Below, piece by piece: positions 8,398-41,776 of a stretch of DNA of 64,000 bases (its first letter is position 1; each line of letters begins with the position of its first letter). Source of the DNA: a virus (Duplodnaviria; Caudoviricetes); the IMG/VR virus record IMGVR_UViG_3300037851_000284, positions 1 through 64,000 of that record; one strand, given 5' to 3'. The notes below the pieces were generated by a model. That model saw only the letters and a program-made list of their open reading frames with translations. It ran no database searches and was not told where the DNA came from. The translations under genes were made by a program, and so were the position numbers.

Positions 8398-8822
8398 CCC
8401 AATTGATAGGGAAAAAATCCATGACAATATGTCCGAACGGCGGATCTACCTTCTGGACAAACTGCTTTCCATTCGACCAGGATTTGGATGGTAATCCAAC
8501 AAAGGAATGGAAGAATGTTGTAAAGGATAAGGATATGATTACTAACATTCTTCTTTCTAAATCCTTTGCTGATAATGTGGTTCTAATTGATATTAAGAAG
8601 TTCGAGAGCAATGGAAATGTAGTAAACGTTTCCGATATATCGAACTGCGTTACAGCAAAGTGTGTGATGAAGAAAGATCCAAGAGGATTTATGTTGCTTG
8701 TTGTCGGGAATAAAACGGCAAAAACACAGCTATTATGTGGGAGAACGAAAAGAGATGCTTCTTTCTCTCCTTTATTAGTATATGTAAAAGATAAAAAATT
8801 CCATCTTCTTAACGAAGTGTAA
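8379..8822 (+). CDS. hypothetical protein
   Basis: overlapping ORF in operon. Confidence 0.6.
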   Translation: MAWTGITQLIGKKSMTICPNGGSTFWTNCFPFDQDLDGNPTKEWKNVVKDKDMITNILLSKSFADNVVLIDIKKFESNGNVVNVSDISNCVTAKCVMKKDPRGFMLLVVGNKTAKTQLLCGRTKRDASFSPLLVYVKDKKFHLLNEV

Positions 8823-8849
8823 CATATCCTTCTCACTTAACCAAAGGGA

Positions 8850-9476
8850 GTGCTTATGTCTCAACAAATCTTCAAGAATGTCCCGATGATTGACAATCGT
8901 GGACAGAATGCGACGGGAGTCGGGATCCTTTCGTCCGACAAAAGGTTCGTGGTAGCGTGCATTGCGCGCTCGTATGTCGGTCCGTGGAAAGCCAGTGCGA
9001 CGGGAAGCGGCAACGATGCTCGTCCAATCGGGTTCGGTGATATCAATGTTTTCACCACCGAGAACATCAAGACGCTAGCCGATGGGTCTGTTACCGCAGA
9101 CCTGAGACCTTTTGCCACCAATCTCGGATTCCGCGCAATGGAAATCCGTGACCAGCAGGGAAATGTGTCTGAGAGCATCAATACTACGCTAGATGACACA
9201 TTCGGGCAGGGAAAGAACCAAAAGAAAATCGGTGATATCTTCCCCAAAGAAGTGACATCAATTTTCAGCGCAGCAATCAAGATGGCAACTAAGTTTCTTA
9301 CCGAACAGGGTCCGGCGCGGCGTATGCTCAACGCAGAGCTGTCAGAGGCCGCAAGCGACCTCGCTCGTATGGCAGCCAATGCAGACAAGAAGAGGGCCAA
9401 AGCGACAACCTCAAGCCCTGTTCAGGCAGTGGGTGGGGTAACCCCAGCCTCGGTGCTTGAGGAATCCGCAATATAA
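8850..9476 (+). CDS. hypothetical protein (GC-richer codon usage; start may be 8856)
   Basis: RBS gggag; followed by terminator. Confidence 0.7.
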   Translation: MLMSQQIFKNVPMIDNRGQNATGVGILSSDKRFVVACIARSYVGPWKASATGSGNDARPIGFGDINVFTTENIKTLADGSVTADLRPFATNLGFRAMEIRDQQGNVSESINTTLDDTFGQGKNQKKIGDIFPKEVTSIFSAAIKMATKFLTEQGPARRMLNAELSEAASDLARMAANADKKRAKATTSSPVQAVGGVTPASVLEESAI

Positions 9477-9515
9477 CTGGCAGATAAGCAGCTTGGCGCA
9501 ACATCAGTCCAGTTG

Positions 9516-9548
9516 AGGGACAAGGATGAAAGTCCTTGTCCCTTTTTT
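9516..9548 (+). terminator. intrinsic terminator
   Basis: agggacaaggat-GAAA-gtccttgtccct plus T tract. Confidence 0.85.
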
Positions 9549-9722
9549 ATTGAAATTACCAGATTAGATACCATACCATTTCACTATTAAATTTCTTGGT
9601 GCACCTTCTTAGTTAGATAGAATTTGACAAAGTAATCACTGGAAGAAACTTAATATATGCAGGTACGTCTGGAGATTTAGGTTTCGTGTCATATGATATC
9701 TACGAGGAATCTGTCATAATAG

Positions 9723-13243: not shown

Positions 13244-13315
13244 TCACAGAGTAGCGCCCTTAAATGGGCGTTAATGTGGCAATCTGGTTACAAGCCCAGA
13301 TAATAGGAGGCACTG

Positions 13316-17313: not shown

Positions 17314-17398
17314 GGGATTGTCACCTAGTGGTAATGGTAACAGCTTTTTAAGCTGTCGAGGGTAACCTCTACCGTAGGTTCAAATCCTATCGGTCCCA
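17314..17398 (+). tRNA. tRNA with Lys anticodon (TTT) and long variable arm
   Basis: gggattg/cggtccc acceptor; acagc-tt-TTT-aa-gctgt; gagg-gtaa-cctc variable stem. Confidence 0.85.
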
Positions 17399-20980: not shown

Positions 20981-21330
20981 GGGGCTGAACTGATTCGACT
21001 AGTGTAAAACGTATTAACCATATACGGTGGTTGGTAGGATGGCCACCATAAAATCCTACAATTTACAGACGACGATGCAGAATATGCATATCAGTTAGCT
21101 GCCTAATTGAAGGCAGCGAAAGAAATAATAAGTCTGTGATTATTATTTCTACAAACACACAGATAGGGTAACCGAACGGATATTAGAGAAGGGGACCAAA
21201 GAGACGTATATCCAACATCTTGTTATCCAAACTGTGAGAGACAAGATGAAATATTCACAGTTTAACGTATATAAGTAAAGTTAATACATGTAGCATCTAG
21301 GACGGGAGCTCAACCTCCCCAGCTCCACCA
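20981..21330 (+). ncRNA. ssrA: tmRNA; tag (A)DDDAEYAYQLAA at 21068-21106
   Basis: GGGGCTGA 5' end, cagctccACCA 3' end with G3-U pair, pk1-like stems, tag ending LAA-stop. Confidence 0.93.
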
Positions 21331-21335
21331 ACTTA

Positions 21336-21369
21336 TAAAGGGTGGAATTAAAACTTCACCCTTTTATTT
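21336..21369 (+). terminator. terminator after tmRNA
   Basis: aaagggtgg/ttcaccctttt stem plus T tract. Confidence 0.7.
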
Positions 21370-21564
21370 AATTGGCGGGAAATGCTTCACTCTTTGGAAA
21401 TTATAGGGCGTGTAAAACGAGTAAGAATGTTGACATCCCCAATCGGATTGTATCTGATTATGGGTTGCAACTTTTTTCGTGAACAAGAACACGCCTTTAC
21501 ATTGCAGCAATTATCAGCCATTTAGCAGACGTTGGCCGAAATAAATTTTTCTCTTGGGGGTTAT

Positions 21565-21765
21565 ATGGGCTATCTTGGTTCCAATGTCAACGAGGATTAT
21601 TATTCATATCAATTATTGGAAGTAGTTGCGAAGCAAATTGATGATAATGACACAGGTGATTGGAATAAGCTCCAAGATAGCCTGACCGCTGTCGTAGAAA
21701 AATTTACATCAGCCAACAAACGCATTAAGCAAGGGCTAAAGCCACATGCGAAGCGCACGTCTTAA
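21565..21765 (+). CDS. cassette 1 ORF, hypothetical
   Basis: RBS ggggg; reads through attC1. Confidence 0.6.
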   Translation: MGYLGSNVNEDYYSYQLLEVVAKQIDDNDTGDWNKLQDSLTAVVEKFTSANKRIKQGLKPHAKRTS

Positions 21766-21782
21766 TGCGTCACACGTTGGTG
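21711..21782 (+). other. attC-like site 1
   Basis: AGCCAAC; acgcattaag/cttaatgcgt; GTTGGTG. Confidence 0.85.
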
Positions 21783-21830
21783 TAAATGCCACTTGCCTTT
21801 TGAATTATAGGCGGTGGCAAAGGAGATAAA

Positions 21831-22055
21831 ATGTATAGTTTACCTATTGAAGATATGGCAATTGCCACCGCAGAACATTTTAGGAAGGCGAGTGGCACAT
21901 CCACCAACAACGCAAGGGATGCCATTGCCGCATGGGATGAATATGTTAAGTATCATCGTTCTTATAGCGGCCCTGGTTCTTTTATAGAGTCGGATGAAAA
22001 GTGTAAATATTGGTTTATTCTTGGTTATAGTGCGGCAACAGCACCCGTTGCGTAA
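21831..22055 (+). CDS. cassette 2 ORF, hypothetical
   Basis: RBS aaggag; two thirds lies inside attC2. Confidence 0.6.
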   Translation: MYSLPIEDMAIATAEHFRKASGTSTNNARDAIAAWDEYVKYHRSYSGPGSFIESDEKCKYWFILGYSAATAPVA

Positions 22056-22064
22056 ACGTTGCAC
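21902..22064 (+). other. attC-like site 2
   Basis: CACCAAC; acgcaaggg/cccgttgcgt; GTTGCAC. Confidence 0.85.
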
Positions 22065-22106
22065 GCAATAGCGGCCTGAATTTTTAAGCGCGGCGAAAGG
22101 AATAAA

Positions 22107-22472
22107 ATGAAAAAAGTAGTATCAGAATTTATCAACGAAGTCGAGCATATGCTTTCTTGTTGGGATGCCCCGTCATCACAGTCTTGGAATAGAGCATCTA
22201 AGTTATTCGAGGAAGCAAGAAAAGAAATCGCCGCGCAATGTGGTACTCAGGCCGCTACAGTAGCTGCCGTTCCGTCAGCCGCGCAACACGGCCAGCCTGA
22301 AATTTGCCAGCACGCCGAATTGCTCTATTCGCGTTGTAAGTGCACTATTAAAAATTCAATTAACTCCGAAATGTATACTTGCGATGGTAAAGGTCAATAT
22401 ACGGTTGTAAAAAATCTCGGTTACGAATACAGTTACCAGTGCGGTAAAAGTGCTGGTAAACTTCAGGCGTAG
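22107..22472 (+). CDS. cassette 3 ORF, Cys-rich C-terminus
   Basis: RBS aagga; reads through attC3. Confidence 0.65.
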   Translation: MKKVVSEFINEVEHMLSCWDAPSSQSWNRASKLFEEARKEIAAQCGTQAATVAAVPSAAQHGQPEICQHAELLYSRCKCTIKNSINSEMYTCDGKGQYTVVKNLGYEYSYQCGKSAGKLQA

Positions 22473-22484
22473 CCGGCGTTAGCG
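22281..22484 (+). other. attC-like site 3
   Basis: GCGCAAC; cggccagcctgaaatttgccagcac/gtgctggtaaacttcaggcgtagccg; GTTAGCG. Confidence 0.85.
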
Positions 22485-22521
22485 GCAATACCGCCGAGTC
22501 TTAACTTATAGGAGTTCGCCG

Positions 22522-22788
22522 ATGAGTGCAAACGAATCTTTTGAAGCCTTCGCCGAAAGGTTTTATAAAAAATATGGCTTTTTGCCTTTAGGCAAAGATG
22601 ACCCGTGCCGACCTTCTGCCGAAACAATTCTTGCCCGTTTAGGTGAGACATTCGGCGAACTCGAACGGGCGGAATCGGCGGTACGTGCCGCTAACAGGCC
22701 AAGTACGCCATGCTCTGCTTGTGGTCGTGACATGGAATGCCCTAACGGTTGTCAAGCTACGCATCGTAGCGGCATTGTTTTAATGTAG
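22522..22788 (+). CDS. cassette 4 ORF, CxxC...CxxxC tail
   Basis: RBS aggag. Confidence 0.65.
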   Translation: MSANESFEAFAERFYKKYGFLPLGKDDPCRPSAETILARLGETFGELERAESAVRAANRPSTPCSACGRDMECPNGCQATHRSGIVLM

Positions 22789-22818
22789 CAGCACGGCGCA
22801 CTTTGTCAACCGTTGGTG
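22689..22818 (+). other. attC-like site 4
   Basis: CGCTAAC; ggccaagtacgccatgct/agcacggcgcactttgtc; GTTGGTG. Confidence 0.8.
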
Positions 22819-22873
22819 GAAATGCCGTGCCGAGTCTTTGTACTTAGGTGCGGCTTTTTAAAAAGGGGATTTT

Positions 22874-23080
22874 ATGGCTTATTCACCGTTTGAGGAATCA
22901 CAAGAGTATCACGATAGCGTGGCTGGCCGCACAGTAAAAAAGGAGTCGGCACAGCACATACACCAACACGGCCAGCTTGCAATGCCTGGCATTTGTCCAG
23001 ATTGTAACCGTTATCTATTATCGTGTACCCGTCCCGGTGTATTACAGTGTGATGATTTTAAGTCGGCACTGCAAGCGTAG
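22874..23080 (+). CDS. cassette 5 ORF, Cys-rich tail
   Basis: RBS agggga. Confidence 0.65.
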   Translation: MAYSPFEESQEYHDSVAGRTVKKESAQHIHQHGQLAMPGICPDCNRYLLSCTRPGVLQCDDFKSALQA

Positions 23081-23095
23081 CCGGGAACGTTGTAA
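22961..23095 (+). other. attC-like site 5
   Basis: CACCAAC; cggccagcttgca/tgcaagcgtagccg; GTTGTAA. Confidence 0.85.
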
Positions 23096-23143
23096 GCCAT
23101 TGCTGCCCGGCTTTTAAAATATAGGCGCGGCGAAAGGAAAAAT

Positions 23144-23368
23144 ATGTCTCGACATTTTATTAATATGGAATCATGGTTTCCTATCATAATTCAATATGAC
23201 ACAGGAGAAATTTTTAAGTGTAATTCTCCATCAGAAATTATAAATGGTAAATCGTTTCGTGTTTTAGATACAAGATATGCCGCGCATGACATTAAGGAAG
23301 CCGGGCAGAACGGGCTTACAACAACCGTATGCCAAAATGCGGCTGACACTAAGGAATCGGGATTGTAG
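23144..23368 (+). CDS. cassette 6 ORF, hypothetical
   Basis: RBS aagga. Confidence 0.65.
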   Translation: MSRHFINMESWFPIIIQYDTGEIFKCNSPSEIINGKSFRVLDTRYAAHDIKEAGQNGLTTTVCQNAADTKESGL

Positions 23369-23398
23369 GCCGCACTTCGGCATACTCTTCCGTTGTTT
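23316..23398 (+). other. attC-like site 6
   Basis: TTACAAC; gtatgccaaaatgcggc/gccgcacttcggcatac; GTTGTTT. Confidence 0.85.
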
Positions 23399-23434
23399 GC
23401 AATTTCGCTCTTAAATTTATTATAGGAGTTTACC

Positions 23435-23717
23435 ATGACAAATGAGGTTGCTGTACGAAAAATGGAACAATATTTTGAAGGGGCATTGCTGAATCGTGAA
23501 GTTGTGGAAGCATGGCAAACTCTGAAAGCCGCTGTACTCGCTCAACAGACAAACAACAGCGTTAGTGCGCCATGTGAAATATGTAAGTATTCAAAAGACA
23601 AACAACAGCGTTAGTGCGCCATGTGAAATATGTAAGTATTCAAATGAAGCTGCTGATATGTACCCATGTGAGGATTGTTGCCATTGTGGTAACGACCATT
23701 TCACACAGCGCACGTAA
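23435..23717 (+). pseudogene. cassette 7 ORF frameshifted by a 49-bp tandem duplication
   Basis: RBS aggag; stops at 23614; without the duplication it would read ...PCEICKYSNEAADMYPCEDCCHCG...QRT-stop at 23717. Confidence 0.65.
23547..23644 (+). repeat. 49-bp perfect tandem duplication of the R''/L'' half of attC7
   Basis: agacaaacaacagcgttagtgcgccatgtgaaatatgtaagtattcaaa x2. Confidence 0.95.
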
Positions 23718-23731
23718 CGCAAACGTTGCAC
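23551..23731 (+). other. attC-like site 7
   Basis: AAACAAC (x2); gcgttagtgcgc/gcgcacgtaacgc; GTTGCAC. Confidence 0.8.
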
Positions 23732-23772
23732 GCAATAGCCGGTTGCAAACTTTATTGAAAGGGCGGTTTCTA

Positions 23773-24069
23773 ATGTCCAAAGCTAATACGTTGCCACCTA
23801 CTGAGATTTATGATGTTTTACATAAAGCTGAAGCGGTTAATATTATTATTCCAATGTCTGTTGATAAGTGGTGGAGAATAGAAACCGCCATAAATCAAGG
23901 AGCGCAACCGGCTACAGTAGCTGCCGGTGAACCGTCAGCCGTGCAACAGCTAAAGGCTGAAATTGCCGCAATTGCCGATAGATTACAGGGGTTCAATGAC
24001 TGTCCAGATGGTGGTTTTAACGACATTCAGGATTATATCAACCGCTTGCAGCAATTATCAGCCGTTTAG
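23773..24069 (+). CDS. cassette 8 ORF, hypothetical
   Basis: start MSKANT after aaggg; reads through attC8. Confidence 0.65.
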   Translation: MSKANTLPPTEIYDVLHKAEAVNIIIPMSVDKWWRIETAINQGAQPATVAAGEPSAVQQLKAEIAAIADRLQGFNDCPDGGFNDIQDYINRLQQLSAV

Positions 24070-24081
24070 CAGACGTTGGAG
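23941..24081 (+). other. attC-like site 8
   Basis: GTGCAAC; gctaaaggctgaaattgc/gcaattatcagccgtttagc; GTTGGAG. Confidence 0.85.
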
Positions 24082-24086
24082 GCAAT

Positions 24087-24392
24087 ATGGAGAATCTTGA
24101 AATTATGTGCGCCGCCGATGGACCAGCGAAATGCAGTTTCGGGCCGTGGCGTGGAACTCGCGAAGAAGGCTGGTGCGATTTTTTCAACATGAAACAGCCG
24201 TATCGTTTGCCTCCGGGCAAGGTTTGTAAATATGCTGATGGCAAGGAATCTGTAGCGGCGGCGCAAAACATTGCGGATATTCGCCATACAGCCTCCAACA
24301 GGCAAAGGGATGCCATGCCTCAAATAGAACTTGACTTTGGTGGTGTCTTCGATGGGTTCAGTGTTCAAAGCGACGCTGATCCAGGTTTGTAA
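24087..24392 (+). CDS. cassette 9 ORF, hypothetical
   Basis: RBS ggagg is part of the R' box. Confidence 0.65.
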   Translation: MENLEIMCAADGPAKCSFGPWRGTREEGWCDFFNMKQPYRLPPGKVCKYADGKESVAAAQNIADIRHTASNRQRDAMPQIELDFGGVFDGFSVQSDADPGL

Positions 24393-24423
24393 GGGCACGG
24401 CACCCGTTTGCCGGACGTTAGCG
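24293..24423 (+). other. attC-like site 9
   Basis: CTCCAAC; ggcaaagggatgcc/ggcacccgtttgcc; GTTAGCG. Confidence 0.85.
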
Positions 24424-24479
24424 GCAATTAGCTCGGCGGCCATTTAATAGGCCGGGCGCAATTCAAAGGAGCAAACAGT

Positions 24480-24680
24480 ATGCGTCTTGAAGATGCTATT
24501 GATAAGTGCCATGTAAGGTCGGCGGTCTATCGCAAGTCAAATCCGAGTGTGCGGTACTGGAAAAATAATTCGCAGTCAATCCTTGAGCGCGTGCCAGATG
24601 AAGACCGCCTTGCAATGGATTGGGAGGAGCATGACCCACGCGACGAAGATGACGGGTCTTTGTTCATGTTCAACGACTAA
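24480..24680 (+). CDS. cassette 10 ORF, hypothetical (stops before its attC)
   Basis: RBS aaggag. Confidence 0.7.
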   Translation: MRLEDAIDKCHVRSAVYRKSNPSVRYWKNNSQSILERVPDEDRLAMDWEEHDPRDEDDGSLFMFND

Positions 24681-24719
24681 GAGCGCCCGGCAGCATAATA
24701 GGAGCGCCGAGCCAACAGC

Positions 24720-24795
24720 CGCTAACACCTGCATGGTGGCTCGATGACTCGCGCAAATGCCGAAGCGGCACTTCACCATGCAGGGAACGTAAGAA
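24720..24795 (+). other. attC-like site 10 with damaged R'
   Basis: CGCTAAC; cctgcatggtg/caccatgcagg; R' reads gtaagaa, consistent with a 3-nt loss from gttgtaagaaataaa (compare 26888). Confidence 0.7.
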
Positions 24796-24938
24796 ATAAA
24801 GGTTGCTATGCTCATTGGATGTGCCAGCTACTACGAGTCCAGTACGGTGCACCGTAGACTGATACCGTCTTCATGTAGCCTTGTTGGGCACGGCAACCGA
24901 TTATCAAACGTTGCAATTTGTAAATCTTTGGAGGTTAT

Positions 24939-25001
24939 ATGCCCGGCGAAATCAAACCGTGTCCGTTCTGTGGCAGCGTCGAAGCTGGTATGCAGTCATA
25001 A
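24939..25001 (+). pseudogene. truncated Lar-like KPCPFCG fragment in remnant cassette
   Basis: RBS ggagg; MPGEIKPCPFCGS then early stop. Confidence 0.4.
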
Positions 25002-25237
25002 CGGCCAGCGTGCGTTGGTCAAACGTTGTAAGTTCGCTTCGCATATTTTCCGCTCTTTTAATTTCTGGGCGCATTGATAGCACAATCGAGTGTGATTATC
25101 GGTGAGGTTGGATAACAGAGTGCGTCTGCCAACCAATAATAATGCCCCGCTCGGCCCGTACCTATCCGATGGTCGTGGGACTGGCAACAGTGTAATCGGG
25201 CCAGTGCGCCATTTGATATTGTAGAGCGAAAAATACT

Positions 25238-25305
25238 ATACAACAGCCAAAGTATGTTCGCTTCGCAAATTGTTTCACAACTTCATACTTTGGCACATGT
25301 TGAAT
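25238..25305 (+). other. attC-like site (cassette starting 25025)
   Basis: ATACAAC; gccaaagtatg/catactttggc; GTTGAAT. Confidence 0.8.
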
Positions 25306-25319
25306 TGGAGGAGGTTGCT

Positions 25320-25571
25320 ATGTGGAATCATTCAGAGGGTTTGCCACTAAGAGATTTTTTCGCTACGGAAATACTCAAGAGGCTTATGTTGCGTTATAGG
25401 CAGCCAGGATACTCAGATCATGCCGCTATCAACGAAGCGTATCAGTTAGCTGATTATATGGTGGAGTGTCGGAAGTCCGCAACTGCAAAAACAGCGGAAT
25501 CGAGCCAACATCCACCAACAGCACCATGCCAAAACACCATAGGAAATTATGGTTGTGAAAATATGTTATAA
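25320..25571 (+). CDS. cassette ORF, LRD(F/Y)FA...AY..AD.M family phage protein
   Basis: RBS ggagg; recurrent phage motif. Confidence 0.65.
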   Translation: MWNHSEGLPLRDFFATEILKRLMLRYRQPGYSDHAAINEAYQLADYMVECRKSATAKTAESSQHPPTAPCQNTIGNYGCENML

Positions 25572-25601
25572 TGGCGCATCAGCATATCGCAAACGTTGGC
25601 T
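25513..25601 (+). other. imperfect/hybrid attC-like site
   Basis: CACCAAC and aaacGTTGGCT present but L arms pair poorly. Confidence 0.5.
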
Positions 25602-25704
25602 TTTTGAGTTATAGGTCGCATAAGAAAGGAAAATATGAAGTCTTGGATGATTAGAACGGATCATATACTTATGAACACGCGTTCGTATACCAATACTCAG
25701 TAGA

Positions 25705-25956
25705 ATGGAATATCTAATGGAATCAGAAGAACAACGCAAATTATATGAAAAAGAAACTGGGAAACATTGGTTGAACACATTTTCTTGTTTTGGTCCGTCT
25801 GTTGAGTATGTAGAATGGTTGGAAGACAAAATTGCTACACAACAATACGACGCCATACCATGTAATCAGCACGGAAAACAGTCATCGGTTATATCGGTGT
25901 GTCCTACTGGAAAATTTGAATGTGGCCTATCTCCGTGTATGATTACACGAAGTTAG
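25705..25956 (+). CDS. last cassette ORF, hypothetical
   Basis: EKETG...YVEWLE; QQ at R''-like ACACAAC; Cys-rich tail. Confidence 0.55.
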   Translation: MEYLMESEEQRKLYEKETGKHWLNTFSCFGPSVEYVEWLEDKIATQQYDAIPCNQHGKQSSVISVCPTGKFECGLSPCMITRS

Positions 25957-26105
25957 TGGAGAATAAGTACATGAAAATTCTACGTCGAACTTCTTATAGT
26001 CCTATCTAGTGTTTGTACTATAGGTTTAATACTATTTGGTATATTTTACATCACAGTATCTCTAGATGGCAAAAGCAAAAATCTTAATAAAGATAAATAT
26101 AATAA

Positions 26106-26444
26106 ATGAACATAATAAAAGTATCTGAAAAGCTCATAAACAAGAATGATCCAAATTTATTTGTAACCATCTTAGATCATGATGGAGACAAATATTTAAT
26201 AAGAATAAATTCAACGTCTATAAGAGCCGTAGTATCGGAAAGTTATCTAGATTCACAAAAATGGATAAAGCACGAAGGAACACAAAATGACCAAAATAAG
26301 AAGAACTCCACTTCAAACAACGGAAAGAGTACAGAAAAACAAGGGAAAAGAGAAACAAGTAGCCCTGTATACAAAGAAACTGAATCTTCTAATAACAGGA
26401 ACAAATCCAGAAGACCATCAAAAACTGGCAGCCGATCTTCATAA
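26106..26444 (+). CDS. hypothetical protein
   Basis: ORF track. Confidence 0.45.
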   Translation: MNIIKVSEKLINKNDPNLFVTILDHDGDKYLIRINSTSIRAVVSESYLDSQKWIKHEGTQNDQNKKNSTSNNGKSTEKQGKRETSSPVYKETESSNNRNKSRRPSKTGSRSS

Positions 26445-26584
26445 GTTTATAGGAAGCCATCCGCTTATAGTTGGTGGAAAGGGAAAAAGGCACTTACATG
26501 TAGTTAGAGGGTCTTCTATTCCAACTAAAATATTCGATGGTATAGTATAATAAGAGAACCCAAGCTATTAATACCAAGTTCTAT

Positions 26585-26659
26585 ACCACCGTAGCCCAAC
26601 TGGTATGAGGCAACCGCCTTAGAAGTGGTACAGTGTAGGTTCGAATCCTATCGGTGGTA
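26585..26659 (+). tRNA. tRNA-Leu(TAG), short variable loop
   Basis: accgc-ct-TAG-aa-gtggt; 5-nt variable loop. Confidence 0.88.
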
Positions 26660-26739
26660 TAAGATAAATCTATTAATATTTAAGAATTGGAAACTTTTCA
26701 TTAGTTTATTTTATACAGTTTAAATTTTATAGTACCATC

Positions 26740-26814
26740 GGGCGCGTAGCTCAATTAGGTAGAGGCAGCAGCCTTAAGAGCTGCGTGTTGAGAGTTCGAA
26801 TCTCTCCGCGCCCA
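26740..26814 (+). tRNA. tRNA-Leu(TAA), short variable loop
   Basis: gcagc-ct-TAA-ga-gctgc; 5-nt variable loop. Confidence 0.88.
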
Positions 26815-27036
26815 TTTATTTATAATGAATATTATCAAAAAAAGAAAATGTGCCGTTGGATGAAGTATATACTTTTATATGCACATAGTTGTAAGAAATA
26901 AACGTGTTCCTCAAAAATGTTCAGCGCGGGACGGATTATTGATGATGCCGAAGCAGGGTTTGTCGGACATTTTTACCCCAAACGTCTCACCGAATTATAA
27001 ACCGCGCCTATCAAATTCAAAGAACACGTTTATTTC

Positions 27037-27095
27037 TTACAACAACCGTGTTACGCAAGCCCAAAGTGGCCAGCGCAACACGGTGAACGTTGTGC
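27037..27095 (+). other. 59-bp attC-like site
   Basis: TTACAAC; accgtgttacgc/gcgcaacacggt; GTTGTGC. Confidence 0.88.
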
Positions 27096-27130
27096 AAAAG
27101 TTTTAACGCTTTGAAATTGTAGGAGCAGCG

Positions 27131-27403
27131 ATGAAAACGAAAGAAGAATTGATATTTCAGGCTTTAGGTGCAGCGTCAATGTGTTGGACTGGTGCGCCGT
27201 CAGGTACGTTTGATATAAACAGGTGTAAACAGATAGGTGACGAACTAATCGCCGCCCTGGAAAATGCGGAGGCGTTAAAACCTTCGCACAACAGCGCCAG
27301 CCTGTTATGTGATGACTGTATACATAGTCATGGAAATTATTGCCTGCTGGGTGTTAATCACTGTATTCGTGCGGCAGAAGATTTTTACACACGAAAGGCA
27401 TAG
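27131..27403 (+). CDS. array-2 cassette ORF, Cys-rich tail
   Basis: RBS aggag; reads through attC. Confidence 0.7.
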   Translation: MKTKEELIFQALGAASMCWTGAPSGTFDINRCKQIGDELIAALENAEALKPSHNSASLLCDDCIHSHGNYCLLGVNHCIRAAEDFYTRKA

Positions 27404-27414
27404 CCGCGTTGTAG
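27286..27414 (+). other. attC-like site
   Basis: GCACAAC; gccagcct/aggcatagc; GTTGTAG. Confidence 0.7.
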
Positions 27415-27509
27415 TCAATACCGGCTCCGATTTAAGTGTAATACAAAGCGTACAGTATTATGCTGCAAATGTTGGCTATAATTTACCATGTTAAAATAAG
27501 GAGAAATAA

Positions 27510-28228: not shown

Positions 28229-28318
28229 TGCACAGTCGAGAAGTCCGGTCTATCTCACTGGTTTCATATGCCAGCGCTCTTAACGAGCTCGAAGGTTCAA
28301 ATCCTTCCTGTGCAACCA
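28229..28318 (+). tRNA. tRNA-Met-like (CAT) with long variable arm, encoded CCA
   Basis: tgcacag/ctgtgca; ctggt-tt-CAT-at-gccag; gctc-ttaac-gagc variable stem. Confidence 0.85.
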
Positions 28319-40297: not shown

Positions 40298-41776
40298 ATG
40301 AAAGCGAATACAAGTGCTGAAGGACAGGGACTATCCAAGATAACCGACGGAGTAGTTCTAAATAAAGAAGGAGCAGTGGCTTACGCTCTGAAGGATAAAG
40401 AGAAACTAGTCACAGGTATTTTAACGAACTTCTTTAAAGAGCCTAAATTTTATGGAGATAATACCCCTGAGATAATCGAGACTGCCCGTAAGATTATACA
40501 GGAAGATCCAGAGTTCGTGGCAAAGGCAGCGTGCTTTGCACGTAACAAGTTTCATATGAGATCCATCTCTCATGCTCTTTCCGCCGAAGTAGCAAGAGGG
40601 GCAAAGGGGAATAAAATTGTCCGCAAGATGATCAGAAAAGTCATTGAGCGGGCCGATGATATGACTAACATTATATCATATCATATAAACACATGGGGAA
40701 AGCGTGGGAAAGAAAATCCTATTCCAAGAGGACTTCGAAGAGGTCTAGCCGATGTGTTTCCTCGGTTTGACGAGTATGCACTGGCAAAATACAAAGGAGA
40801 GAGCAAAACCGTCAAACTGCGTGACGTTCTCAAAATGATTCATCCCACTCCAAAGAATAAGGAGCAGGGTGAAATGTGGAAGCGTCTTATTGAGGGAACG
40901 CTGGCTACTCCTGAGACCAGAGAGACAATACTCTCTGATAAAGGACAGTCAAAGGAAGTATGGGAAAGTATCCTAGATGGTAAAGCGGGATACATGATGA
41001 TACTCCGCAACTTGAAAAATATACTTGAGCATGGTATAGATGATACTCATCTAGATAAAGTGTGCTCTCTATTGAAGGATCCTGATGAAGTTCGTTCCTC
41101 AAAACAACTTCCGTTCAGATTCCTTTCCGCATACAGAATGGTTCAAGATATGGGCAATCCGAGAGGAGCAAAGGTATTAGAAACTCTGGAAGATGCTCTT
41201 CTAACATCGACCGAGAACGTACAAAAGCTAAAAGGAATAACTGCTGTACTGACAGACGAATCAGGATCAATGACTCGTCTATTATCAAAAAACTCGTTAG
41301 TTAGGTACAGAGATGTTGGTAATTTGTTGGCAGCCATTTCACACAGAATATGTGATAGTTCTGTTATTGTCCCCTTTGGCACAGATGCTGTAGTATTAAC
41401 ACTTTCTCCTAGATCAAGCGTATTTGATAACATGAAGAGAATGAATAGTTCTGGTGTTGGCCACTCAACCAATGTACACATAGCTCTAGGAAAAGCATTC
41501 TCTGTAAATGTAAAAATAGACAGGATAATCCTGTTCTCAGATATGCAGGCTTATGGATGCTCAGATGGAATAAATTCCATGGTTCAGAACTACAGACGTG
41601 ATAAGAATTCCAACTTATGGGTACATTCTGTAGACCTAGCGGGATATGGAACCACCCAGTTAACGGATAAAGTTAATCTGATAGCAGGATGGTCAGAGAA
41701 GATTCTAGACTACATAGGTCTCGTCGAGAACAGAGGGTTAAGTCTTGTAGAAGATATTGAAAACTACAAGCTGTAA
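40298..41776 (+). CDS. Ro60-like TROVE-domain RNA-binding protein with vWA domain
   Basis: NKEG..AY, EPKFY, KYKG, TPETRE, MMILRNL, QLPFRFLSAY, DESGSM, FSDMQ, GWSEK. Confidence 0.92.
   Translation: MKANTSAEGQGLSKITDGVVLNKEGAVAYALKDKEKLVTGILTNFFKEPKFYGDNTPEIIETARKIIQEDPEFVAKAACFARNKFHMRSISHALSAEVARGAKGNKIVRKMIRKVIERADDMTNIISYHINTWGKRGKENPIPRGLRRGLADVFPRFDEYALAKYKGESKTVKLRDVLKMIHPTPKNKEQGEMWKRLIEGTLATPETRETILSDKGQSKEVWESILDGKAGYMMILRNLKNILEHGIDDTHLDKVCSLLKDPDEVRSSKQLPFRFLSAYRMVQDMGNPRGAKVLETLEDALLTSTENVQKLKGITAVLTDESGSMTRLLSKNSLVRYRDVGNLLAAISHRICDSSVIVPFGTDAVVLTLSPRSSVFDNMKRMNSSGVGHSTNVHIALGKAFSVNVKIDRIILFSDMQAYGCSDGINSMVQNYRRDKNSNLWVHSVDLAGYGTTQLTDKVNLIAGWSEKILDYIGLVENRGLSLVEDIENYKL

Follow-up and report, generated by a model that had tools for sequence, protein, structure and literature searches.

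The cassette arrays and their reading frames

The 64,000-nt stretch of DNA analyzed here—the window—is the start of the 219-kb, 95%-complete genome of a large freshwater phage with 33% GC. Two GC-richer arrays lie 3′ of its tmRNA gene and comprise about 16 mini-cassettes of 115–570 bp with G|TT boundaries, each of which closes with an AAC...GTT hairpin resembling an integron attC site. Array 1 begins directly behind the tmRNA terminator (left junction TTTAA|TTGG) and gives way to AT-rich phage DNA at its right junction, G|TTAGTGG; array 2 is found downstream of two tRNA-Leu genes. The arrays start at TT and finish at G, and all cassettes share the orientation of phage transcription. An Rfam search matched tRNAs, the tmRNA, and a twister ribozyme only, attC not being among the Rfam families.

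21371..25957, + strand: array 1, 14 co-oriented mini-cassettes, c0–c13; 42–51% GC vs 33% for the phage
21531, 21776, 22058, 22478, 22812, 23089, 23392, 23725, 24075, 24417, 24910, 25025, 25595, 25951: array 1 boundaries (G of G|TT)
26888..27470, + strand: array 2, cassettes d1 and d2 and a ~60-bp cassette-leader remnant
26888, 27089, 27408: array 2 boundaries (G of G|TT)

A cassette is built from TT, the R′ arm, a ribosome-binding site, the ORF, R″ (..YAAC), L″, the loop, L′, a 4–5-nt spacer, and the G.

21565–21765, + strand: c1 ORF; attC-like site 21711–21782; 17 of 66 codons inside; stop in L′; z −2.8
21831–22055, + strand: c2 ORF; site 21902–22064; 50 of 74 codons inside; stop ends 3 nt before G
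22107–22472, + strand: c3 ORF; site 22281–22484 (204 nt); 63 of 121 codons inside
22522–22788, + strand: c4 ORF; head module 22479–22695; R″ AAC 22693–22695; site 22689–22818; tail a 4-Cys peptide (CSACG..CPNGC)
22874–23080, + strand: c5 ORF; site 22961–23095; 39 of 68 codons inside; hairpin type and frame as in c3 (QHGQ...LQA)
23144–23368, + strand: c6 ORF; site 23316–23398; 16 of 74 codons inside; z −3.0
23435–23717, + strand: c7 ORF; site 23551–23731; frameshifted by a 49-bp tandem duplication, 23542–23639
23773–24069, + strand: c8 ORF; site 23941–24081; 42 of 98 codons inside; tail without a CxxC pair; arms encode QLKAEIAAIAD and LQQLSAV
24087–24392, + strand: c9 ORF; site 24293–24423; 32 of 101 codons inside
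24480–24680, + strand: c10 ORF; conventional case, stop 42 nt before R″; site 24720–24916 (197 nt) untranslated, basal stem weak
24911–25025, + strand: c11, 115-bp remnant cassette with a 20-codon ORF
25320–25571, + strand: c12 ORF; R″ AAC 25517–25519; next G 25595; tail of the c6 type
25705–25956, + strand: c13 ORF; R″ 25838–25844; hairpin to 25951; stop TAG in the terminal R′ box (G|TTAG)
26889–27089, + strand: d1; 59-bp site 27037–27095; perfect 22-nt R′/R″ arms; z −2.4; no convincing ORF
27131–27403, + strand: d2 ORF; site 27286–27414; 38 of 90 codons inside

In 12 cassettes, an ORF with its own ribosome-binding site crosses R″ and continues through 14–63 codons of the hairpin; measured on the AAC...GTT site, 16–63 codons (16–68%) of each ORF fall inside. 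A previous sequence-only reading had described this read-through for cassettes 1–9 (cassette 7 once de-duplicated) and for the ORFs at 25320, 25705, and 27131, and it was recovered at every one of these places. Cassette c7 enters the count only after removal of its duplication, which covers R″ and the beginning of L″ and shows a doubled repeat depth. The read-through stops end 3–25 nt before the crossover-point G, with c13 as the sole exception, whose TAG lies inside R′. The gene takes up the entire unit in most cassettes, and because its stop codon comes shortly ahead of the G|TT crossover point, the cassette remains a self-contained gene. All three frames occur at the AAC—frame 0 in c1, c2, c4, c9, and d2; frame 1 in c3, c5, and c8; frame 2 in c6, 25320, and 25705—and the frame is constant per hairpin type (c3/c5 QHGQ; c2/c9 N.(A/Q)RDA; c6/25320 T..CQN), with the same assignments as proposed before.

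Reassortment of heads and tails

Each cassette can be divided into a head (TT...AAC) and a tail (AAC...G), and related phages, for which all comparison sequences are metagenomic contigs, carry these two parts in different combinations. The c4 head was found with at least five unrelated tail types, while the c4 tail recurs at five loci and is also the C-terminal part of eight further proteins, whose heads are unrelated. Likeness among c4 homologues begins at G|TT and finishes at AAC, and the homology breakpoints of the family map to the AAC of R″ (22693–22696) and to G|TT (22477–22484). At the joint, the parents have only YAAC in common—their R″ arms read GCTAAC, TATAAC, and ACCAAC—and the tails differ right from the base that follows AAC. 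Among 44 cassettes on 15 phage contigs, 21 pairs share the head only, 12 the tail only, and one shares both. The c3 site is also present in another sample with both flanks different, and a d2 homologue from the same sample as the window sits behind a different site, with likeness beginning at 27088. Hairpin arms recur as types around different loops, those of c8 for instance in L011.

As a pattern in the compared contigs, it is established that heads and tails were reassorted many times among unrelated phages, with joints exactly at AAC and G|TT. The swapping of C-terminal modules that the sequence-only reading had put forward, together with its suggestion to look for one N-terminal domain with different tails, is borne out by the c4 head and the c4 tail. 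Since the same heads occur with different tails in related phages, and the reverse, the recombination site would double as a swappable protein module. Crossing over at R″ through top-strand recombination can reasonably be inferred from these breakpoints, but from them alone. Known attC sites stripped of their asymmetric bases do recombine via both strands (PMC5027507).

It is conceivable, however, that the hairpins recombine only at G|TT and that heads and tails owe their reassortment to gene conversion or ordinary homologous recombination between conserved arms, driven by RecA/UvsX-type or annealing proteins. In a second, c7-type family, the N-terminus and the tails vary, but the 48-nt R″ arm that separates them is near-invariant and its peptide, AWQTLKAAVLAQQTNN, invariant; this shared arm suffices for ordinary homologous recombination. 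The genome encodes a RecA-like protein, and an ERF gene is present on one related contig. The recurrence of arm types with different loops points in the same direction, as do hybrid-looking sites, namely the c4 site with its two broken pairs and the c10 site, whose 3′ arm matches the 5′ arm of c9. The 48-nt arm of the second family and the RecA-like gene count against a site-specific exchange at R″. In the c4 family, on the other side, the parents share YAAC alone, which is too little homology for a RecA-type exchange, and the joints fall on one triplet. We consider homologous recombination as the source of the reassortment unlikely, yet far from negligible.

Pairing within and between cassette ends

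YAAC...GTTR is present in 14 of 14 sites. In 11 of 14 sites, the complementarity between a site's own L″ and L′ arms surpasses the 95th percentile for cross-pairings, with a mean score of 20.0 for own arms vs 9.7 ± 2.1 for cross-pairings. The first bases of a cassette are moreover complementary to its own R″, giving 20–28-nt arms in 10 of 14 cassettes, in which a 2-nt mismatch recurs ~10 nt into the R arms. In five homologues, 104 of 105 cells of the R′/R″ arms are paired (99%) vs 24–48% with the partner slid, and 7 of 21 pairs have changed on both sides in a compensatory manner; the L″/L′ stem of the c4 site adds three compensatory pairs. Judged by these alignments, the R′/R″ pairing is under selection.

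The sites are 59–204 nt long, four of them exceeding 141 nt, where a typical attC site spans ~57–141 bp. The spacer measures 1–2 nt after AAC vs 4–5 nt before GTT, bulged bases are distributed near-symmetrically between the arms (27 vs 32), and the minus strand folds on average ~1 kcal/mol better. Promoter and terminator functions of the hairpins were considered and rejected: 16 promoter-like matches compare with 14.1 ± 4.4 in shuffles, six terminator-like matches with 6.9 ± 2.8, and T runs are missing.

The hairpins and the pairing of the cassette start with an internal segment might instead act at the RNA level—by stabilizing the mRNA, as RNase III-type processing sites, or by controlling translation—with the modules shuffling by illegitimate recombination. 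The cassettes are co-oriented with phage transcription, the R′/R″ pairing links a 5′ leader to a coding sequence ~200 nt away and could also act in an mRNA, and a recombinase was not found. On the contrary, AAC and GTT at every hairpin base, with the unit boundaries located there, constitute an integron signature without an RNA rationale, and the arrays themselves end at TT and G. Terminator-like T runs are absent, promoters are not enriched, and the whole-site folding energies of the long sites lie only modestly below those of shuffles. An RNA role as the full explanation is thus improbable.

Coding constraint on the hairpin-encoded tails

Compared with shuffles, the openness of the window sites gives a product of per-site probabilities of 4e-10; a Fisher combination of these (our own calculation) yields ~0.004, a moderate significance from the window alone. 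At other phage loci, the sense ORF ends 3–34 nt before the G in 32 of 40 sites, as compared with ~3 of 27 antisense readings of those hairpins (our count), and in the c7-type family 18 of 18 tails have at least 28 residues. The cysteine content is 7.1–7.3% in tails vs 2.1–3.4% in heads—a two- to threefold enrichment that agrees with the Cys-rich loop tails noted in the sequence-only reading—and about half of the tails contain three or more cysteines. Paired CxxC and CxxCxGxG motifs produce weak DnaJ zinc-finger matches inside the tails; a Pfam search returned no domain above threshold, and an AlphaFold model was of low confidence. The hairpin loop of the c4 site has a pN/pS of 0.05–0.22 across five loci, and its variable columns split 7/3/19 over the three codon positions; on this measure, the loop is under purifying selection. 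Codon-level conservation of the loops had been proposed earlier as a check, with freely accumulating stops and frameshifts as the refuting outcome, and the opposite was observed.

The notion that the proteins functionally end at R″ and that the frames are open by chance or through gene-caller extension finds some room in the moderate window-only significance, the lack of Pfam domains, and the low AlphaFold confidence, but is hardly tenable against the pN/pS of the loop, the difference between sense and antisense readings at independent sites, the tail lengths of the second family, the paired cysteine motifs with their zinc-finger matches, and the cysteine enrichment.

The comparative data show the hairpin-encoded tails to be genuine protein modules under purifying selection; their translation is inferred from evolution only, without RNA or protein data. 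With the loop under coding constraint, the R and L stems under pairing constraint, and heads and tails swapped, the reading of these hairpins as dual-use DNA that allows for tail swapping is supported.

Relation to known systems

Integrase-less attC clusters (CALINs) occur in phages, of which 17 have been reported (Qi et al. 2023, PMC9892861). The arrays resemble integron cassettes and CALINs in their co-oriented single-gene units and G|TT boundaries, and, as for phage CALINs, no integrase was found in this phage. Like integron attC sites, the hairpins are imperfect AAC...GTT structures of variable sequence, and the cassette start complements its own R″. Unlike in attC sites of integrons, however, translation runs through 14–63 codons of the hairpin and yields a protein module under selection, and the breakpoint pattern speaks for exchange also at R″. 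The R arms of 20–28 nt with their conserved 2-nt mismatch set these sites further apart, as do the 1–2 vs 4–5-nt spacer and the lack of a clear extrahelical-base asymmetry; in canonical attC sites, the arm across from the bottom-strand AAC bears extrahelical bases, and the central spacer is unpaired over ~4–5 nt on both sides (PMC5027507). The cassettes are also very small for integron cassettes (115–570 bp), and their families were found on phage contigs only, bacterial genomes having been searched as well.

Mobile and Vibrio integron cassettes share the compactness, and the stop of resistance cassettes lies mostly inside attC (PMC11511950, PMC11014356). The earlier statement that attC canonically follows the stop codon was hence too strict: attC overlaps the stop codon in most resistance cassettes (PMC11511950), and cassette ORFs are said to overlap attC sometimes (PMC11014356). 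The overlap in those integrons is confined to the stop codon plus a few nucleotides, whereas the hairpin here can encode as much as two thirds of the protein and acts as an exchangeable C-terminal module.

In shufflons (Rci) and in the Gin and Cin segments of Mu and P1, sites within a gene join alternative C-terminal segments to a constant N-terminus—by inversion in one locus and one gene, with a dedicated recombinase encoded alongside. The present arrays have recombination sites within genes and alternative C-termini in common with these systems; they differ in that exchange runs between genomes, at folded hairpins, among many unrelated heads and tails, and without an enzyme in cis. The PeSL cassettes of T4-type phages are small variable-region genes whose conserved flanking stem–loops mediate modular shuffling; PeSLs are intergenic, combine terminator and early promoter motifs, and rely on homologous recombination for the shuffling (PMC2839356, PMC4122927). 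Small genes, large phages, and stem–loops tied to modular shuffling are common to both, but here the hairpins lie inside genes, the boundaries fall on AAC and GTT, and promoter and terminator matches equal those of shuffles.

A proposed recombinase acting in trans

Searches of the 95%-complete 219-kb genome revealed neither a tyrosine nor a serine recombinase nor a Y1 transposase, and PF00589 and TIGR02249 gave no match; the arrays thus lack the intI gene that stands with attI and Pc beside the array of a complete integron. A tyrosine recombinase was also not found in five related virus records or adjoining any related array fetched, and no recombinases were found in a complete 167-kb phage with the same cassettes. 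With none in the phage or beside the fetched related arrays, the enzyme remains unidentified. Excised circles and empty sites were not observed. A search of 87 + 401 sampled Bacteroidia genomes did not recover the cassette families, although an enzyme supplied by the host remains possible.

We favor, with moderate confidence, the explanation that integron-type mini-cassettes with coding hairpins are arrayed here without an integrase and that their heads and tails are reassorted by a tyrosine recombinase provided in trans; enzyme and crossover are both inferred. Such a recombinase would fold the near-symmetrical hairpins. Exchange at G|TT via one strand would move whole cassettes, exchange on the other strand, at the AA|C of R″, would move a tail along with the head that follows it, and both types together might create combinatorial head–tail fusions. 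Once a cassette is excised as a circle, its start and its own R″ arm, complementary over 20–28 nt, would pair to form a long R stem again. Against this proposal count the missing clear extrahelical-base asymmetry, the 1–2 vs 4–5-nt spacer, the long R arms, and sites of up to 204 nt.

More tentatively, and with the balance somewhat against it, the phages of one freshwater community might have in common an integron-like system whose hairpin is itself the exchangeable coding module, with exchange at G|TT or AA|C. If true, these phages would possess combinatorial libraries of small head-plus-tail proteins, many with zinc knuckles, and a cassette recombinase would shuffle protein domains and not genes alone.

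Genomic setting of the arrays

The virus record comprises 219 kb and is judged 95% complete, with the window covering its first 64 kb. The phage has a GC content of 33%, carries nearly all genes on the + strand, and is found repeatedly in freshwater metagenomes. Besides 20 tRNA genes in the window, it encodes a ClpB-like ATPase, a Ro60/TROVE protein, a RecA-like protein, a UvrD helicase, and a DNA ligase. The first cassette array begins at TTTAA|TTGG, 7 nt after a terminator-like hairpin; the second begins 74 nt past two tRNA-Leu genes.

Arrays and neighboring features
13245-13299, type-P5 twister ribozyme in the phage tRNA region (51.6 bits, gathering score 37.6)
17314-17398, tRNA-Lys(ttt), 85 nt, unusually long (ARAGORN)
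20981-21330, tmRNA gene directly 5' of array 1 (74.8 bits)
21337-21364, terminator-like hairpin after the tmRNA
21371-25957, array 1, 42-51% GC in 1-kb windows
26888-27470, array 2, 42-51% GC in 1-kb windows
28229-28318, tRNA-Met(cat), 90 nt, unusually long (ARAGORN)
40298-41776, Ro60/TROVE-domain protein (E 1.5e-34)

No Rfam Y-RNA family scores above threshold anywhere in the window. GC above 45% also occurs outside the arrays, at 1-800 and 8700-9700, where cassette-type arms and hairpins are absent.

Cassette layout

The sequence G|TTR divides both arrays into units, each of which opens with TT. In 10 of the 14 units, the first 20-28 nt complement a downstream stretch of the same unit ending in YAAC, and an imperfect hairpin of 59-204 nt lies between this AAC and the next GTT. 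The units thereby share the grammar of integron cassettes: the initial R' arm pairs with its own R'', which is followed by L'', a variable loop, and L'. Since folding of the whole site yields only weak z-scores where sites are long (-0.2 to -1.9), arm complementarity was used as the measure, and it exceeds the 95th percentile of cross-pairings for the own L''/L' arms of 11/14 sites. The arrays are classed here as a variant form of the integron cassette system. Promoter-like and terminator-like matches within them show no excess over shuffles.

Between 21531 and 27292, the R'/R'' arms repeatedly show a mismatch of 2 nt, positioned at about 10 nt from the triplet (..AAT.. in R' against ..ACAG/ACAT.. 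in R''). It is shared by unrelated cassettes as well as other phages (related loci L004, L006, and L009), which suggests a recognition feature. A TATAGG-like motif after each crossover was discarded: it largely consists of the ribosome-binding site and A/T, and homologues of cassette 4 do not preserve it. Scanning the genome for hairpins without gaps lacked both sensitivity and specificity. An alternative in which the coding strand serves as the "bottom" strand and R'' is the only unit boundary was dismissed: TT opens and G closes both arrays, and all stop codons but one precede G|TT.

Open reading frames run through the hairpins

The sequence-only reading had proposed that ORFs run through the recombination hairpin and take their C-termini from it, in all three frames at AAC and with each hairpin type keeping its frame. 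This holds for 12 cassettes. Their ORFs have a start codon preceded at 5-10 nt by a ribosome-binding site, cross R'', L'', and the loop, and stop 3-25 nt short of the G or, in a single instance, within the R' box. The hairpin contributes 16-68% of each protein. AAC is indeed read in all three frames, with the frame constant among related hairpins. In the following, we term the part encoded from TT to AAC the head and the part encoded inside the hairpin the tail. Exceptions are cassette c10, which stops before R'', and cassette d1, whose 59-bp site carries no convincing gene. Two further cassettes of array 1 are irregular:

Irregular cassettes
23542-23639, 49-bp tandem duplication in c7, 98% identical, spanning R'' and the start of L'' and frameshifting the gene
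24911-25025, c11 remnant of 115 bp, comprising a ribosome-binding site and an ORF of 20 codons, MPGEIKPCPFCGS...

The c7 repeat has twice the read depth of its flanks in the source run, so that the duplication is real and not an assembly artefact. The c11 ORF resembles the beginning of a small zinc-ribbon protein.

Taken on its own, the window gives moderate significance to the openness of these ORFs: the product of shuffle probabilities is 4e-10, and a Fisher combination gives ~0.004 by our own calculation. Of 40 hairpin sites in other phage loci, 32 have a sense ORF whose end lies 3-34 nt short of the G, compared with ~3/27, by our own count, when these hairpins are read in antisense. A 196-residue RNA-ligase-like cassette gene (RLIG1) in a related array (L005:1850-2440) has its TAA inside the TAAC of R''; conventional and read-through cassettes thus coexist.

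Ten cassette proteins gave no Pfam match above threshold, and no protein relatives were found for cassettes c3 and c9. GenBank phages yielded a tRNA match alone or nothing when compared with the complete array (blastn) and with one cassette protein (tblastn). An AlphaFold single-sequence model of the cassette-4 protein was uninformative (pLDDT 54), and an ESM Atlas look-up gave scores <0.9.

Coding and pairing constraints on the same DNA

For the cassette-4 protein, relatives were found. When its last 33 residues were searched against 1.84 billion representative proteins, eight others, 71-144 residues long, were found to end in this tail at about 80% identity, with N-terminal parts that are unrelated. 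The DNA of five distinct copies of this tail varies at 7, 3, and 19 columns in codon positions 1, 2, and 3, respectively, with pairwise pN/pS values of 0.05-0.22. Judged by this codon-position bias and the low pN/pS, the loop of the cassette-4 hairpin evolves as protein-coding sequence—as far as sequence comparison can tell—and thereby passes the check on codon-level conservation that had been suggested for the loops.

Tails are also richer in cysteine, with 7.1-7.3% compared with 2.1-3.4% in heads, and 21/38 tails bear three or more cysteines. In several of them, CxxCxGxG pairs produce weak matches to the DnaJ zinc finger, located wholly within the hairpin. In the c8 tail (23941-24081), the CxxC pair is absent, and the arms encode QLKAEIAAIAD and (R/K)L.QLSAV.

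The pairing of the arms was compared in five cassette-4 head homologues on five contigs for 21 proposed R'/R'' pairs. These pairs are intact in 104/105 cells, and 7/21 carry changes in both partners; when one partner is shifted by 1-3 columns as a control, only 24-48% of cells pair. The residues just before R'' (AAN, AYN, TYN, ATN) hereby covary with a non-coding leader about 200 nt upstream. At the cassette-4 site, three compensatory pairs maintain base pairing in the basal L stem. With coding selection and compensatory pairing acting together, the cassette DNA is, by this comparative evidence, under a double constraint.

Reassortment of heads and tails

A search for one N-terminal domain with different tails, again a suggested check, was successful: the cassette-4 head of 57 residues occurs in other contigs at 81-93% identity with at least five unrelated tail types. 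In one of these loci (L009), a head copy with identical R'/R'' arms bears a d2-type tail. Homology of the head on the DNA level extends from 22477/22484 to 22696, and homology of the tail with a further locus (L003) begins at 22693, which places the joints at G|TT and at the R'' triplet AAC.

The c7-type family shows a similar mosaic around a shared arm.

Shared arm of the c7-type family
23501-23557, R''-arm peptide AWQTLKAAVLAQQTNN of c7-type cassettes (proteins P0011-P0026)

This peptide is nearly invariant in 19 proteins, with N-termini and tails varying on either side; one tail is found on different heads and one head on different tails, and 18/18 tails comprise at least 28 residues. The main rival explanation—ordinary homologous recombination across conserved arms—is plausible for this family, in which the 48 nt encoding the peptide are highly conserved on the DNA level (12 variable columns, seven at third codon positions). 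It is not plausible for the cassette-4 joints, at which the parents have no likeness other than YAAC. Assembly chimeras are an unlikely source of the cassette-4 family, given a joint with just 4-7 nt in common and since its head-tail combinations recur in independent samples and assemblies. A MITE-like insertion of heads was rejected, as target duplications are absent.

Among 44 cassettes from the window and 14 other loci, heads are homologous in 22 pairs and tails in 13, but both in only one. In the source sample, the c3 site is also present with different sequence on both sides, and a homologue of d2 begins at 27088 behind a different site. In another phage (L011:748-1002), the c8 hairpin arms surround a different loop; loops, hence, appear to move between stems and to form a third exchangeable layer.

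Distribution and the missing recombinase

All related loci with enough context are phage-like, bearing terminase, ERF, DnaB, primase-helicase, DNA ligase, or tail-fibre-like genes. Searches of the phage genome revealed no tyrosine recombinase, integron integrase, serine recombinase, or Y1 transposase. No tyrosine recombinase was found in a complete 167-kb phage with such cassettes, nor any recombinase by Pfam among ten larger ORFs beside related arrays. The cassette families were not found in the species-genome collection, where one match (L010) turned out to be the FYKKYGF motif of a GNAT acetyltransferase and not a cassette. Two cassette modules were not found in 87 + 401 (488) sampled Bacteroidia genomes, and a distant phage relative (L001) lacks such an array. 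A viral-contig scan for one DNA pattern found nothing; a second pattern gave a single 20-nt match in a 57% GC contig (L002), judged to be chance.

Mechanism and implications

Integron integrases choose the bottom strand by means of asymmetric extrahelical bases. The sites described here lack these asymmetric bases of attC: bulged bases on the two arms number 27 and 32, and asymmetry is limited to the spacer. In attC sites stripped of these extrahelical bases, both strands recombine (PMC5027507). While layout, coding and pairing constraints, joint positions, and the absence of an enzyme in cis are demonstrated, a recombinase supplied in trans and acting on the folded hairpins is inferred. Exchange of one strand at G|TT would move whole cassettes; exchange of the other strand at AA|C of R'' would move a tail with the next head; and both combined would yield the observed mosaic. 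The stop codon just before G|TT keeps the cassette a complete gene wherever it is inserted. The proposal of dual-use DNA with swappable C-terminal modules is, thus, supported as a pattern by coding, pairing, joint positions, and reassortment, not as an enzymatic mechanism.

Integrons are viewed as shufflers of whole genes, and attC as non-coding DNA that touches the stop codon at most. The premise that canonical attC lies after the stop codon is too strict, since the stop codon of resistance cassettes usually overlaps attC (PMC11511950) and ORFs of Vibrio arrays "sometimes even" overlap it (PMC11014356). Integrase-less attC clusters occur in temperate and virulent phages, and IntI1 recombines some of their sites (PMC9892861). 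In the literature searched, we did not find attC hairpins encoding selected protein modules, or head-tail exchange at R'', described.

Such cassettes will be misannotated by gene-calling and integron-finding software built on the assumption that attC follows the stop codon. Strand choice and the origin of cassettes are unsettled for integrons; near-symmetrical sites that exchange at either triplet are relevant to both. Here, the recombination site is a selected protein piece and also the point of protein re-assortment: one DNA is constrained by folding, recombination, and coding, and the compromise is measurable in the R''-adjacent residues that covary with the 5' leader. Through this concrete and testable route, phages could generate combinatorial diversity among small accessory proteins.
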